A stretch of DNA of 64,000 bases from an uncultured delta proteobacterium (GTDB taxonomy: Bacteria; Desulfobacterota; Zymogenia; Zymogenales; Zymogenaceae). Location of the stretch: the NCBI GenBank assembly GCA_963735595.1, contig CAVTLK010000005.1:672001-736000 (forward strand). Reading direction: 5' to 3'. Position 1 is the stretch's first letter. Every line of letters begins with the position of its first letter. Positions 27,001-33,000 of the stretch are shown here, piece after piece. Made by a program: the position numbers.

Positions 27001-30000
27001 TCGCCCGACAAGCCGCAGGTGTTCCGTGAGGCGTACCGGTCGCTCACCCCCGGAGGCAGGCTCATGGTGTCGGACATCGTGCTTCTGAGGGAGCTGCCGG
27101 AGCAGGTCAGGAAATCGGTGGACGCCTATACGGCCTGCGTGGCCGGCGCGCTGATCAAGGACGATTATATCGGCGCGATCAGGGCTGCCGGTTTTGAGGA
27201 CGTGGAGGTGATCGGTGAGACGGTCTACCCCACTGAATGGCTCATGGCCGACCCCTCGCTTGAGCCGATGATCGAGGAGGCAAAGGCGGCAGGAATCATC
27301 GACGACGGCAAGCCCTATGCCGCCAGCATAAAAGTCTCGGCAATAAAACCGGGAGGAGAGAAAAAGGCGGATTGCGAGGGGTGCTGTTGCTGCTGTTGAC
27401 GATTGGACCGGTATTGACTACCAAACTGTTTGAAACGGGCGGCCTAACGGCTGCCCGTTTTTTAATAGCGCTGGGTGCCACCCGATGCCGGACGCGATGA
27501 ATCGCGTCCCTATGATTTTTTTTTCAACTCCCGTCTCATGAGCGTTACCTCAAACGTGAAATGCTCAAACCTGATCCGGCGGTTTACGGTAAAGCCCATC
27601 CGCCGGTACCATTTGACCAGGTGCTCCTCGTCGGAGATCACCCCGATCGAGGCATGGTCGGCCCCGGTCTTCGCGGCCTCGTCGATCGCAAATGTCAGGA
27701 GCTTTTTGCCCAGGCCCCGGCCCTGATAGCCCGGCAGCACCGCGAGCCTGCCGATGTAGCAGACCTCGGGCCGGGCGTGCTCCACTGTCACGGAGCCGGC
27801 AGGCGTGCCGTCTGCCTCGATAATATAATAATGAACGCCCTTGTCCATGTCCCCGACTATCCATGCGTCGGTGATGTTGGAGGCGTGCTTCGAGTCCTTA
27901 TCCGGGGGCAGCCCCAGGCGATCGGCCACCTCTGTGAAGGACGTCTTAATGATCGCCACGAGTGTCGGGATGTCGTCCTGACCGGCCCGTCGTATAGTCG
28001 TATCCATCGCGAAACCATCCATTATATTTCTATCCGAGTAACGCATCGGCCGGAAAACCGGCTGCCTTGGCGTCCGCGCTAACGGCCGATCGCCTCGATT
28101 CCCGTCCCGGGGAAATAAAACTCGATTATCTGCCGGTAGTCTCTTCCCATGCGGGCGAGCTCTACCGCCCCCCACTGGCTCATCCCCACGCCGTGACCCA
28201 GCCCTTTGCCGTCAAACCGGTAGGAGCCGCCGGTTTCGTGCAGCTCAAAGAGGGTGCTCTTGAGGCTGCCCCACCCGAAGCGGCTGCATACGACGATCCG
28301 GAACTTCTCGCCCGTGAGCCCGGTGCCCGCCCCCGTGAGCCGTATCTTTACCGCCCGTCCCGACGGGTCGCGCCCCGCCACGCCAACGCCGGTCACCGGC
28401 CGGCCGAGCGCGTCGGTAAGCGCCGCAAGCAGGCGCCGCTTCTCGACGGTAGAAGGTCCACGCAAAATCGGGGCTCGCCGCCGAAAGCTCCCTCCCGCGG
28501 AAAGCGTCCCTGATCGGGACGAGGTAGGGGACGGCCGGCCCGCCCCAGACATATACGGGCGATGTGGTCATACCGCCGGAGCTGGAATGATAGAAGACGC
28601 TCGGCCGGTTTGCCGCCGTACGTCACGACGAGGCCGGCGGTCTCGGTGACGGCCCGGGTGCCGGCGGCGGTCTCGGTATCCACGCCCCCGTAGTGCTGGC
28701 AGTGGGTCAGGTCGCACAGGTCCCAGCCCGTGTGCCTGCCCCGGTTTGCCAGAGCAAAGGTGCGGCACACGATCGCCTGGGCCAAAAGTGCGGCCGTTTC
28801 CCTCGTGGAAAGCTCGGCCGGCACCACCGAGAGGAGATACTCCTCGAGGGGCACGGTGTTGAGAAGGACGATAACGCCCTTCTCGGCCGATAGGGTGAGC
28901 GTCCCGTGGTAGCGGTGCCCGTCGGTCGGCGTCGTGACGGTAAGGACGGTCGACCCGGATAGGGGGGAGATAGTCAGGGGGGTCGGCACGCGCGCCGCTT
29001 TATCGTCTACGGTGAGAGTCAAGACCGACGATCCACTGGCGGTAACGGTAATGGTAACGGGGTTTTGTTCAAGGGCACCGCCGGGAAACGAGACGCGGAC
29101 GGGAGATGGCGCACTGATGGTTACGCGGTCGGTAACCCTACCCTCGAGGACCCTGACGACGATTGCGGTATCGCCGGCTGCGGAGGCGGTTACGGCAAGC
29201 AGGAGCGATAGAACACACGGCACCAATAGAAAACGCGCCAAGCGTGGTAACCGCGGTACGGCACGGATCGGTGTCAGGCGGCAGATCGAGTACATTGCGG
29301 CCCCAATGACGACTATACGGTCACTATATGATGAACGGTGAAAAAAGAAAAGGGAAAATATCGCCGGAATCATTGGAGGGCTGCGGGCAGACATCCACCC
29401 GAATCGGCATCACCTTTTGACTTGACGTTTTCCCCGATTACGATATGATATTACCGTTTTGTTGATAGGTGCGGTACAGACGCTAAAACCCAGTTTGCGC
29501 GGTGGAGGTATTATATGTCCGGTTATAAGAAAGTGCTGGTTGCGGTGGACGGTTCGTCCTGTTCGGAAAAGGCGGTTGGGGTTGCCGTAAACTTTTGCCG
29601 GCTTTCAAATGCCGAGCTTCACGCCATCTTCGTCATATCCGAGATGGTGGTGGAAAACTTCAAGCGCCTCGGCAAGGGACAGGCCAAGGAGGTGCTCGAG
29701 AGCCTCAAGGACGAGGGGAGAAAATACTTTCGCGATGTCAAGGATACCGCCAAGGAATGGGACGTGAAGGTTGTGGAGGCTATCCGCGAGGGTTTCCCGG
29801 CCGACGAGATCGTGACGTACGCCAAGAAGTCCAAGATCGACCTCATCGTCATGGGGACCCATGGCCGCAGGGTTGGCACCAGGCCCCTCATCGGGAGCAC
29901 GGCAGACCGGGTCATCCACCTGGCGCCCTGTCCGATCCTCATCGTGCCATAAGGTATCGTGGGAAAATATCCCATCAGGAAGTTTTCTTGCCGATAGACT

Positions 30001-33000
30001 TGCCCCGGAACAAGTCTATCGTTTTTTTGAGGAGCGGGAGGATTTCTCCGAGGTAGAGAGAATTATCCCTCCGCAGCGCACCGAGGATACCGGCCTGGCC
30101 CCGCACGCGCTTGCCCGGGCGCGGACCGCCCTCAAGAAGCTGGGCAAGCGGGGGCTGCCGGGCCCGGTGCCGCCCGGCTTCTCTCCGCCGGCCGTCCTTT
30201 CGGACATGGCCGCGGCCTATGACCCGGACCTCCACGAGCGTGTCCGGAGGATCGCCTGGTACCTCTCGTCTTACCTCTTCACCCACGATGACCCCGCATC
30301 TCCCTTTCTCTCGAAAGACCGGCGCGAGGCGCGGCACGCCGACGCGATACGGGCCCACGACGGGCCGATCCTCTTCGTCCCCAACTATAACTCCCATTTA
30401 GACAGCGTTATGATTGCGGTTTTTTTCGACGCCCTGGGCCTTTGTCTCCCCTTCTCGGCCCTGGGCGACCTGCTGATGCCGAGCGTCGCTGTCGAACAGG
30501 AGATGAAGCGGCTGCGGGTCATCAAGATCACCAAGTCCCACCTCTGGGCGCCGCACTACCCGGCCTATGAGCGGATCCTTTCCGAATATATGAAGGCCCT
30601 CTTCGAGGGGGGCGCCCGGGTGGTCGTTCACAGCGAGGCCTCGCGGTACACCACCCGCAGCATCGACGGGACGATGCGGGCGACCATCCCGCCCTGGATC
30701 ATCTCGGCGCTGCTATCGTCCGAGCGGGACGTGCTGGTGGTCCCGCTGACTCTCTCGCTTTCCCGGGTCCCCGAGGACCGGGCGCTGACCTACCATAAAC
30801 CGCTGGCCGGCCTGATCAGCCGAAACGACCTGAGCGCCGACGTCCCGATTACCCGTTACCTGAGATTCGGCCGCGGCTGGTGGGGCCGCCTGTTCAGCGC
30901 GGTGCTCGACGGTATGCCGGGCGTTTACGGCACGGCGTACCTGACGCTCGGCGAACCCTTCCTGAAGGGGGATATGATCAGGGAGGCGCCGGCCGGGCGC
31001 GACCCCGCCGATACCATCGCCAGACGGGCGATGGAGGAGACGGCCAGGAATAAAAAGGTGCTCCCCACGCACCTGGTCGCCGGGACGCTTATGAGCCGCG
31101 AGCGGCTGACAAAACGGGAGCTCCATCCGGCGGCCGCCGAGGAGCTCGAACGGCTGATCGCCTTTCATCGCGAGCGCTACGGGTCGGCGCCCGATCTGGA
31201 CGACTCGTTTTCGGGCGGCATCGGGAGGGCCGTGGAGGCGGGGCTTTTGCCGATGACGGAGCGCCGTATCATTAAAAAGGGCCTGATGCTCCCCCGACGC
31301 TTCTACGTCTCGAACCGGGTCCTGGGCCGGTTCTACGCAAACCAGCTCGACCACCGGATCTATCCCCAGTGGTCGGGCCACAACCTGACGGTGGTCAACG
31401 CCGGGGCGTTCGGCTATACGCTGACCACCCACCTGGGGAGGAAGTTCGACGCCGACCCGGCCTATGCCGACTGGAGCCTGGTGCTGTTTGACGCCCGCAG
31501 GGATATCGTGCAGTCAATAGCGGAGCACCGGGCGCACCCCGACTTTTTCCCCGGCAGCGTGCTGCCGAAGGTTGTCCACGTGGAATCGGACCTCGGGGCG
31601 GGGATCGGCCGCGCCGAGATCGTCGTCGTGGCCACCCCTTCGGACCACTTCCGGGAGACGGCGCGCGCGATTCTGGAGGCCCACCCCGACCCGTTTGTGC
31701 TGGTGATCGCCACGAAGGGATTTGAGGCCGAGACCTCGCTCTTGCCGGTCGAGACGGCATGGGAAGAGATGGACAGGCGGGGGAGGTCCAACGTCCAGAT
31801 CGCCGTAATTTCCGGGGCAAACCTCGCCGGCGAGATCATGGAGGAAAGACTGACGGCAACCCAGCTTGCCGTAGAGAATAACGACCTGAGGGCACGGCTC
31901 ATCGATATCTTCTCAACGGACGATTTTTACGTCTACCCCTCCAGCGACCTCCTGGGCACGCAGCTGGCCGGCGCCATGAAGAACGTCTATGCCATCGCCT
32001 ACGGGATCGCCGACGGATCGAAAGACGCCTCGGTAAACTTCACCGCGACGCTCGTGACCCGTATCTCCGCGGAGATCAAGACGCTGGCCCTGGCGATGGG
32101 GGCCGACCCCGAGACCTTCGATACGGAGGGCCAGGCGTGGATGGCCGATTTTTTGGCGACCGCGCGGGGCGGGAGGAACAGCGAGTTCGGCAAGGCCCTC
32201 GTCCGCTGGCCGGTCCCGATCGCGCTGAGGTTTTTCAAGGACGCCAAGAAAAACATCGAGGGCTACGCGGCGACGAAGGCCGCTATGGAGCTGGCGGAGC
32301 GATACCGGGTGGAGCTTCCGATCGTCGAAGCGCTCTATGATATCCTCTATGAAATGGGAGAGGCCGACCCCCGCCGGTTCATACGGCGGCCGGATAACCG
32401 GTGAGTGCCCGCGGTCGGCGGGGCCAAACGTGATTGGCCGCGCACGACCCGCATTCTCGATAAACCCCGGCAAAATCTAAAAATCCTTTATGGCCGTCCG
32501 GAAGTATGCTATACTGAAACCTTTATGCTTCCGGAGTCGTTATGAAGAGCTTCTTTTGCCCCGAATCCATCGCCGTGGTCGGCGCTACCCCCAACAGGAT
32601 AAAGGGCGGCTATCACATCTACAACAACCTGGCCACCTACTATACGAAGGGCGCCGTGTATCCCGTAAATCCCAATTACGGGGATATCGACGGGAAAACG
32701 GTCTATAAGACGCTCTCGGACCTGCCCGAGCGGCCGGAGCTCGTTATTGTTTTCACGCCGTCGGCGACCATTCCCGGGTTGATCGAGGAGGCGGCACGCC
32801 TCGGAATTAAACGGGTCCAGATACAGGCCGCGGGATTTGCGGAGGTGGGGGCCGACGGGGCCCTTCGGGCCGAGGCGGTCATGAAGATCGCCCGGGAGCA
32901 CGGCATACGGGTCTGGGGGCCCAACTGCACGGGCTCGGTAAGCGCGCGGGACTTCTTTTTTTCTCCCTTCATGCCCGCGCCCGATCTCAAGAAAGTCCTC

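Follow-up and report, generated by a model that had tools for sequence, protein, structure and literature searches.

An acyltransferase-GpsA fusion family in which either half may be catalytically retired, and a probably inactive acyltransferase half in Zymogenia

In most bacteria, glycerol-3-phosphate dehydrogenase (GpsA) is a soluble enzyme without a tether. The Zymogenia genome analyzed here encodes a GpsA fused to an acyltransferase (AT) domain that lacks the catalytic histidine, which raises the question of why a probably inactive domain is kept on the protein that would supply glycerol-3-phosphate (G3P). The gene lies in a 64,000-nucleotide stretch of contig CAVTLK010000005.1 (the window), to which all positions refer. 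The locus is organized as follows:

29515..29952, + strand: universal stress protein (usp) gene, ending 6 bases upstream of the fusion start
29959..32404, + strand: AT-GpsA fusion gene, about 814 amino acids, with a probable GTG start at 29959
29992..30031, + strand: terminator-like hairpin of 11 pairs plus a T run (z -2.7), within the 5'-terminal part of the fusion gene
32542..33918, + strand: CoA-binding/Succ_CoA_lig domain gene, downstream of the fusion

Upon translation, 814 codons are open in the ORF at 29960-32404. The genome-wide survey's note placed the gene at 29960..32404 and took its called start to be about 70 codons short; the GTG at 29959 is the likely start. Relatives begin with (M/V)G(K/N)YPIR. 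The assembly carries one extra base near 29978-29987; this +1 indel, absent from two same-genus genomes and from the contig of one sequencing run, is likely an assembly error. Conservation of the hairpin is confined to the two same-genus genomes. The order usp-then-fusion is repeated in all five other Zymogenia loci examined, and a CoA-binding/Succ_CoA_lig gene lies within 5 kb of the fusion in the same five. No conserved lipid-gene neighbor was found in 16 loci from Zymogenia (f1), its sister family f57, and the related groups f17 and f106 (44 neighbors checked by Pfam), or at loci encoding relatives with both halves intact (24 neighbors checked by Pfam). In one metatranscriptome, contigs cover both halves of close relatives, although contigs cannot prove transcription.

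The fusion is present in 8 of the 10 genomes of the class; the other two are 88-89% complete and also lack a usp orthologue at E<=1e-20, with G001 having only a 33% usp paralogue. Two claims of the survey, that the fusion carries the sole GpsA and that the class has neither PlsX nor PlsY, were borne out: PF07479 gave one match per genome in 7/10 genomes, each inside the fusion, and PlsX and PlsY were both found in 0/10, with positive search controls. Together with f57 (0/7), Zymogenia extends the short list of PlsB-only bacteria, among which PMC11633183 names only the Xanthomonadales. A separate full PlsB is encoded in 10/10 Zymogenia genomes, as is a second, shorter PlsB-like gene. The latter had been described as intact; its NHRSNVD motif is present, but in this assembly the gene is broken between two reading frames. 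GlpK is also present, so the genome has another route to G3P.

The AT half contains the following features:

30197..31369, + strand: PlsB/GPAT-type AT domain (residues about 80-470) whose GPAT_C region is shortened; probably non-catalytic
30386..30403, + strand: motif I, YNSHLD, in which Tyr143 (codon TAT) replaces the catalytic His; His146 and Asp148 are retained
30629..30670, + strand: remodelled motif III, HSEASRYTTRSIDG, with His224, Glu226, Arg229, and Arg233; the Arg390 equivalent is Ile

Pfam matches to this half fall below the cut-off (PF01553 at 133-239, E 0.0066; PF19277 at 323-465, E 0.006). Profile comparison with E. coli PlsB 251-617 gave 97% probability and an E value of 1.2e-10, with Tyr143 aligned to His306, and the family profile matched human GPAT1 (8e4y) at E 1.2e-18 and 9vuq at E 4e-13. 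By sequence comparison, the AT half is solidly homologous to the catalytic core of GPAT enzymes. Compared with PlsB and mitochondrial GPAT1 (PF01553 plus PF19277; TIGR03703), the Zymogenia fusion shares the core, the start of the C-terminal region, and the acceptor-side residues H309, D311, E385, and R388 (PlsB numbering; 13/13 proteins), whereas it lacks the N-terminal anchor domain and about half of GPAT_C, has GpsA attached, and scores far below the family cut-offs.

Rather than HxxxxD, motif I reads YxSHxD in 20/20 distinct Zymogenia-type motif-I regions, as the survey had claimed for the tyrosine; its further claim that a single distant homologue retains the His did not stand, as far more relatives keep it. 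Among 13 aligned Zymogenia proteins, motif III has the Glu and the first Arg, and the second Arg is Ile in 12 and Met in 1, so that the half loses R390, one of two G3P-phosphate arginines. In all 13, R354 has become Lys and the basic position after motif III (the K398 region) has become Pro; both are CoA-contacting in PlsB (10.1101/2023.04.30.538836). The survey's view that the domain is catalytically dead is thus supported by inference, from His306 to Tyr, Arg390 to Ile/Met, Arg354 to Lys, and basic to Pro in 13/13.

Could the rebuilt site still work, with either His146 or the newly gained His224 serving as base, so that it channels G3P or uses another acceptor? Asp148, His146, Glu226, and Arg233 are invariant in the Zymogenia AT half, and His224 is found in 13/13 Zymogenia proteins vs. 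0/30 other family members in the alignment, most relatives having Phe; the pocket is also as conserved as that of active enzymes. PlsB, however, also has a second His, yet its first-His mutant loses almost all activity (10.1101/2023.04.30.538836), so the presence of that residue in the AT half is no guarantee of activity. Several substrate-binding arginines are altered together, a full PlsB accompanies the fusion, and f57 degrades the same site differently (E385 to Arg and second His to Tyr, each 8/8), a pattern more readily explained by loss than by two separately acquired chemistries. We therefore regard a still-active AT half as quite unlikely.

The remainder of the protein is a predicted working dehydrogenase:

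31382..32359, + strand: GpsA domains (NAD(P)H-dependent glycerol-3-phosphate dehydrogenase) with catalytic residues present; DHAP reduction predicted

PF01210 (476-642) and PF07479 (663-799) scored 92.8 and 109.1 bits vs. cut-offs of 23.1 and 25, respectively. Residues K586, K674, N675, D730, R739, N740, and E767 are retained, and the positions matching E. coli K110, K195, N196, D248, R259, N260, and E285, which we take to be catalytic/substrate residues, are kept in 13/13 Zymogenia proteins. All catalytic positions of GpsA/GPD1 (PF01210 plus PF07479) are therefore present; unlike those proteins, the fusion has a 470-amino acid N-terminal addition, a short GGRN loop, as in 1txg, and a Rossmann loop of the form NAGxxG (here NAGAFG vs. 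GxGxxG), in which the first Gly is Asn in 13/13 f1 and 8/8 f57 proteins and the other two Gly are present. It also scores below all NCBIfam whole-protein GpsA cut-offs (NF000940, 179.5 vs. 202 bits; NF000942, 219.4 vs. 257 bits). The best PDB matches of this half are 1z82, 3k96, and 1txg, presumably Thermotoga-, Coxiella-, and Archaeoglobus-type GpsA entries. A eukaryote-type origin, considered from the GANLA/GGRN motifs, was rejected because prokaryotic GpsA score best and the archaeal-type entry has the same loop.

The intact dehydrogenase site also bears on whether the protein could instead be an acyl/alkyl-DHAP reductase of an ether-lipid route, with the His-less domain holding the tail and the DHAP head being reduced by the GpsA half. 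In its favor, 9/10 Zymogenia have an orthologue of an AGPS-like gene (E 8e-29 against Dictyostelium alkyl-DHAP synthase), the second PlsB-like gene would suit such a route, and GlpK offers an alternative G3P supply. We give this idea very little credence: the GpsA site retains all normal DHAP-site residues, whose roles we presume; AGPS orthologues occur in only 2/7 f57, 1/13 f17/f106, and 2/5 both-intact genomes; the gene adjoins the fusion in none of the 16 loci; and no clear fatty acyl-CoA reductase was found in G000.

The Zymogenia gene is a member of one AT-GpsA family whose three fates track gene content. Trees of the AT and GpsA halves each recover the family as one clade (support 98 and 99) and f1 and f57 as sisters (97 and 91). 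Where both halves are intact (nine loci), the fusion is the only PF07479 match in 9/9 genomes, PlsY is found in 0/9, and no other PF01553 match occurs in a frame longer than 603 amino acids in 9/9 (genome completeness unstated); these genomes do carry other acyltransferases of 390-550 amino acids. In f57, as in Zymogenia, a degraded AT half is accompanied by a separate PlsB (7/7 genomes). Conversely, the GpsA catalytic Lys is lost in 13/13 f17/f106 genomes, each of which has a separate GpsA; no GPAT_C match was found in these 13. Some sources label f17-type proteins as glycerol-3-phosphate dehydrogenase, though the catalytic residues of that half are lost. The gene-content rule rests on four lineages, within which kin are not independent. 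Judging from the trees and gene content, the ancestor may have been an enzyme for both steps (DHAP to G3P to lysophosphatidate), each lineage having retired the half for which it had a stand-alone substitute. The wider family and the reciprocal decay of its halves are new beyond the original observation.

The survey had also stated that no such fusion was known. This holds for the papers searched, none of which describes an AT-GpsA or GpsA-AT fusion (the search covered main texts and few subscription journals), but not for databases, in which Leptospira proteins are named bifunctional. The Leptospira/spirochaete proteins (P0122; NCBI name, bifunctional glycerol-3-phosphate dehydrogenase/glycerol-3-phosphate acyltransferase) likewise combine both domain types in about 800 amino acids, but in reverse order (GpsA first, AT second), form a separate clade in quick trees of both halves, and retain HxxxxD in 103/104 aligned; "bifunctional" is a database name, with no tested activity in the literature searched. 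Actinomycetota fusions (about 555 amino acids; P0198) share the AT-before-GpsA order, but their AT is a short PlsC-type domain with an intact HRSFLD and without the GPAT_C region. Matches in the ESM Atlas fall in GPAT-like and GpsA-acyltransferase clusters. A further parallel lies within PlsB itself, whose N-terminal domain anchors it to the membrane (10.1101/2023.04.30.538836). Our profile alignment identifies that domain as a His-less duplicate of the AT fold (hhalign 96%, E 1.8e-9; E. coli motif YNSKAD), an identity that comes from the present sequence analysis and is not named in the accessible portion of that paper. Like the AT half of the fusion, it is a His-less AT-fold copy joined to a live enzyme; it differs in being joined to an acyltransferase rather than GpsA, in having wholly lost motif III, and in showing no pocket-specific conservation in Zymogenia.

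The survey's premise that the dead domain is kept for a reason is supported by the pattern of selection. In the AT core, dN/dS is 0.14 in both usable pairs (f57 was left out because dS is saturated), and AT identity does not lag behind that of GpsA (0.68 vs. 0.70; 95% interval of the difference, -0.09 to 0.04). Within the domain, conservation is higher in the pocket loops (0.87) than elsewhere (0.56), a difference of 0.31 (interval 0.22-0.40). With purifying selection and preferentially conserved pocket loops, the His-less half is no decaying relic. A related explanation, that the AT half persists only because the halves co-evolved into one structural unit, draws on the f17/f106 proteins, in which the catalytically stripped GpsA half remains full-length in 13/13 genomes, an indication that the family does not shed dead halves, and on the length of every member (about 790-840 amino acids). 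However, drift is seen in the dead GpsA half of f17 (identity 0.50 vs. 0.71; C-domain 0.45, 11/141 columns invariant) but not in the AT core of Zymogenia (0.69, 56/141), and we consider this explanation highly improbable.

The same conservation would suit an allosteric sensor, a wider form of the acyl-CoA or LPA sensor of G3P output that the survey had proposed, in which the PlsB site has been rebuilt (His to Tyr, Phe to His, Arg to Ile) as a pocket that binds G3P, LPA/PA, or acyl-CoA and switches the sole GpsA up or down, placing it under the control of a lipid intermediate. The pocket-loop enrichment resembles that of relatives with a catalytically intact AT (0.25 in f17 and 0.33 in both-intact proteins), Y143 and H224 are newly acquired invariant residues, and the length of the AT/GpsA junction is nearly fixed in 49/49 alignment rows. 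The enrichment control is mixed, however, since the f57 PlsB anchor domain is enriched as well (0.17, interval 0.05-0.29), although that of Zymogenia is not (0.04, interval -0.07 to 0.14). Overall conservation was rejected as proof of sensing because the His-less anchor domain of Zymogenia PlsB is as conserved as its live domain (0.77 vs. 0.79). The conserved junction was likewise rejected as proof of a rigid interface; in the alignment, its motif falls on the YYRNN segment of PlsB itself and need not be an interface. The loss of CoA-contacting residues and the presence of GlpK as another G3P source also count against a sensor, as does E. coli, where 20-fold higher G3P gave no rise in phospholipid flux, so that lipid flux there was not set by G3P level (PMC7439487). 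We judge a sensor to be unlikely, though worth keeping in view; if true, a pseudoenzyme would act as a feedback switch where phospholipid synthesis begins, and such a switch would have evolved repeatedly from GpsA/GPAT fusions that performed both steps.

We tentatively favor, at a probability of about 0.45, a reading in which the retired catalytic half is retained as a membrane- and ligand-binding tether that holds G3P production near the separate PlsB. Attachment would be through inherited anchor helices, for which one candidate is present:

30848..30907, + strand: amphipathic segment (residues 297-316), about at the PlsB second membrane anchor; hydrophobic moment 0.56, membrane contact predicted

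The segment ranks third in the protein by hydrophobic moment and is weak evidence; the second anchor of PlsB is described in 10.1101/2023.04.30.538836. The pocket may hold a phosphate-headed ligand, either G3P or the head group of a lysophospholipid or phospholipid, rather than acyl-CoA, in line with the retained acceptor-side and altered CoA-side residues, and G3P output would be kept at the membrane where PlsB uses it. Such a tether would not require allosteric control of GpsA. The loss of R390 and the soluble, untethered GpsA of most bacteria count against a tether. So do the conserved pocket loops, which a plain anchor would not need and which leave some probability to a sensor or an altered enzyme.

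The family amounts to a natural experiment, in which a two-step enzyme splits its work and has apparently had its AT retired twice, by different substitutions, or its dehydrogenase retired. It thereby provides matched proteins for asking why a dead half is retained. The members with two intact halves are candidate one-protein routes from DHAP to lysophosphatidate, in genomes where PlsX/PlsY and full-length PlsB were not found.

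The gene joins a PlsB/GPAT-type acyltransferase half (AT), at its N-terminus, to a GpsA half:

29960-32404, + strand: AT-GpsA fusion frame, 814 open codons

The GpsA N and C domains (residues 476-642 and 663-799) match Pfam over the cut-off; the Acyltransferase (133-239) and GPAT_C (323-465) matches are weak and under it. Despite these sub-cut-off scores, profile comparisons show the GPAT homology to be genuine: a 15-row alignment of the AT half matched residues 251-617 of E. coli PlsB with 97% probability (E 1.2e-10), and a 24-row family profile matched human GPAT1 (8e4y, E 1.2e-18) as well as 9vuq, a GPAT chain of 901 aa (E 4e-13). 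The fusion described in the genome-wide survey's note is real, conserved and more structured than that note saw. Relatives begin with (M/V)G(K/N)YPIR. Because a GTG stands at 29959, and the base that the window has in excess just after it is missing from G004, G005 and one contig of run X3 (depth 2.9), translation likely begins at 29959, and the adjacent frame shift is likely an assembly error. Further genes are split elsewhere in the window's assembly, where indel errors seem common; apparent frameshifts divide a SpoIID-like gene (28079-29394, −), gltX (36984-38481, −) and a duplicated secreted-protein gene (35453-37137, +). A phage terminase large-subunit-like gene (38979-40373, +), possibly a prophage edge, adjoins gltX. 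Just after usp, and 33 bases inside the fusion gene, lies a terminator-like hairpin with a T run (29992-30031, +), kept in the same genus only, that could attenuate read-through from usp.

A class member's protein carries the database name Ca. Zymogenaceae, which belongs to the class Zymogenia, described as fermenters (10.1101/2021.03.22.436540, in part). The fusion occurs in 8/10 class genomes; the G005 copy is frameshifted, the G008 copy is cut by a contig end, and in G001 and G003 (88-89% complete) neither the fusion nor the adjacent usp orthologue was found. The proposal that it is the only GpsA is borne out by PF07479 (GpsA C domain), which has a single match in 7/10 class genomes, always inside the fusion. 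PlsY and PlsX, said to be absent, indeed matched in 0/10 class genomes each, with controls matching in 8/14 and 9/14, respectively. All 10 carry a full-length PlsB, its motif of the CHKSHxD type, together with a shorter PlsB-like gene, and this genome has GlpK over the cut-off and two GlpD-like matches. PlsB without detected PlsX or PlsY was thus seen in Zymogenia (10 genomes) and in family f57 (PlsB 7/7, PlsY 0/7, PlsX 0/7); PMC11633183 names Xanthomonadales as the sole group known to retain PlsB/C by itself. Elsewhere in this genome, a tandem pair of ~730-aa genes with an acyltransferase-like domain (L114, G000:C2:778742-782148, −), the whole one also with an alpha/beta-hydrolase domain, reads HYTRIE / HFTRTE at motif I, with Glu for Asp; frames of similar size occur in most class genomes.

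Tyr143 of the fusion aligns with catalytic His306 of E. coli PlsB in the 15-row alignment. In E. coli PlsB and GpsA numbering, all 13 aligned Zymogenia proteins carry H306->Y, R354->K, F383->H and R390->I/M in the AT half, show Pro after motif III where 22/22 members with intact motifs have a basic residue (Arg/Lys), and retain S308, H309, D311, E385 and R388; Tyr occupies the motif-I His position in 20/20 distinct regions from Zymogenia proteins and metagenome loci. The GpsA half keeps K110, K195, N196, D248, R259, N260 and E285, which we take to be functional residues of GpsA, in 13/13 Zymogenia proteins. Their human equivalents are named as pocket residues (PMC11187211, in part). Thermomonas PlsB (offset from E. 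coli numbering, 60) has H366 and D371 as catalytic residues, with H369, R448 and R450 lining its G3P site and R414, K417 and K458 in contact with CoA; changing the first His nearly abolishes activity, the second His notwithstanding (10.1101/2023.04.30.538836, in part). Because motif residues are changed in the AT half and PlsB is nearly inactive without the first His, we infer that the half is likely dead as a GPAT, as the survey's note had asserted outright. His224, new and invariant, would suit a rebuilt active enzyme, which we consider unlikely.

A full HMMER search starting from the AT half yielded 45 proteins, many of them AT-GpsA fusions of 790-840 aa, and the family matched in 28/401 phylum genomes (Zymogenia 8, f57 7, f17 12/12, f106 1); one f17 protein clusters with a Desulfarculales record. 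The family occurs in three states: both halves intact, AT degraded or GpsA stripped. Both halves are intact in P0014, P0015, P0019, P0022 and nine genome loci (L115-L123), two of them titled Abyssobacteria and Poribacteria; L120-L122 were placed by motif I and two GpsA motifs only. In these nine genomes, of unstated completeness, the fusion is the sole PF07479 match (9/9), PlsY matched in 0/9 and PlsX in 0/5 tested, GPAT_C is confined to the fusion in 4/5 and unmatched in the fifth, and no further PF01553 match lies in a frame above 603 aa; unclassified acyltransferases of 390-550 aa are present. These fusions are candidate one-protein DHAP-to-LPA enzymes. A rubrerythrin-like gene follows the fusion in five of the both-intact loci scanned.

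Zymogenia and f57 have a degraded AT with an intact, sole GpsA. The f57 AT retains His and Asp and shows E385->R and H309->Y in 8/8, with E->R in 6/6 further. In f17 and f106 the AT is intact, and K110, K195 and D248 are missing from GpsA in 13/13 and R259 in 12/13; each genome has a separate canonical GpsA, PlsX and PlsY occur in 12/13, and GPAT_C matched in none. G252 (92% complete) yielded neither PlsX nor PlsY, so the fusion is its best GPAT candidate; it also has a weak PF01553 match in a 917-aa frame. These mirror-image pseudoenzymes comprise L023-L035, P0024, P0026, P0028, P0029 and P0034.

In quick trees of the AT half (86/87 rows, without L079) and of the GpsA half (39 rows), the family forms one clade (SH-aLRT 98 and 99), Zymogenia-type and f57 fusions are sisters (97 and 91), the degraded clades exclude the both-intact rows, and the spirochaete reverse fusion stands apart. 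On the simplest history, drawn from four lineages rather than 39 independent genomes, the ancestor was bifunctional, and a half was given up wherever the genome had a stand-alone copy of it.

At least three GpsA-acyltransferase architectures exist: AT-GpsA, spirochaete GpsA-GPAT and actinomycete PlsC-GpsA. Spirochaete GpsA-GPAT has the reverse order and keeps HxxxxD in 103/104, and NCBI names its Leptospira members 'bifunctional...'; the 551-aa actinomycete PlsC-type fusion P0198 has intact motifs, and the Atlas holds several such Actinomycetota clusters. The statement that no such fusion was known therefore fits the literature searched (subscription journals and supplements lay outside its scope), where no paper on these fusions was found, but not the databases. 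By term search, neither a review of 2026 (PMC13691511) nor a phylogeny of 2019 (PMC6431249) has a passage with 'fusion', and passages of PMC7641849 and 10.1101/2025.11.03.685888 held nothing bearing on it. The wider AT-GpsA family with its three states is new here.

The dead AT half is under selection. Its core has a dN/dS of 0.14 in both usable Zymogenia pairs (GpsA-N 0.17, 0.14; GpsA-C 0.11, 0.04), and column identity in Zymogenia is 0.68 for AT vs 0.70 for GpsA (interval -0.09 to 0.04), whereas the stripped GpsA of f17 drops to 0.50 vs 0.71 and the f57 AT to 0.64 vs 0.80. That the half is a folding relic, kept for structure, is very improbable. Conservation by itself is no proof of sensing, because the His-less anchor domain of PlsB is equally conserved (0.77 vs 0.79 for the live core, same five Zymogenia genomes). 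This N-terminal domain, a membrane anchor whose removal leaves 8% activity (10.1101/2023.04.30.538836, in part), is a duplicate of PlsB's own catalytic fold (hhalign 96%, E 1.8e-9, 226 columns), with motif NRSSLD here and YNSKAD in E. coli, where the match alone is weak (E 0.09); a published version of that PlsB structure paper may already note the duplication.

G000:C1:840918-843578, + strand, residues about 40-275: duplicate domain of this genome's PlsB (hhalign)
L075:544-2967, − strand: E. coli PlsB

With loop columns chosen after the alignments were viewed and a bootstrap that disregards kinship, the excess of motif-loop conservation over the remaining columns is 0.31 (0.22-0.40) for the fusion AT half, 0.16 for the PlsB live core and 0.04 (-0.07 to 0.14) for the PlsB anchor domain, which favours a putative ligand site in the AT half; but the f57 anchor domain gives 0.17 (0.05-0.29), so that the control is mixed.

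The acyl-CoA/LPA sensor that the survey's note had setting G3P output is a hypothesis. A sensor fits the pocket conservation, but the altered residues are the CoA-side ones and a 20-fold rise in G3P in E. coli brought no higher lipid flux (PMC7439487, in part); we rate it as doubtful. An acyl/alkyl-DHAP reductase would fit an AGPS-like gene found in 9/10 Zymogenia:

G000:C4:218092-219954, − strand: AGPS-like (alkyl-DHAP synthase) gene L113, split by frameshifts

This gene is, however, patchy outside Zymogenia and not adjacent to the fusion, and we give the reductase little credence; no clear fatty acyl-CoA reductase was found, and many Desulfobacterota MAGs have AGPS homologues (59/262; PMC11868695, in part). 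An amphipathic segment at residues 297-314, whose moment of 0.56 ranks third in the protein, falls at roughly the mapped place of the second PlsB anchor. In our best reading, to which we assign a probability of roughly 45%, the retired AT half would tether GpsA to the membrane and bind a phosphate-headed ligand, and the tethered GpsA would feed the separate PlsB. Tether and sensor are compatible, and the half could be both at once.
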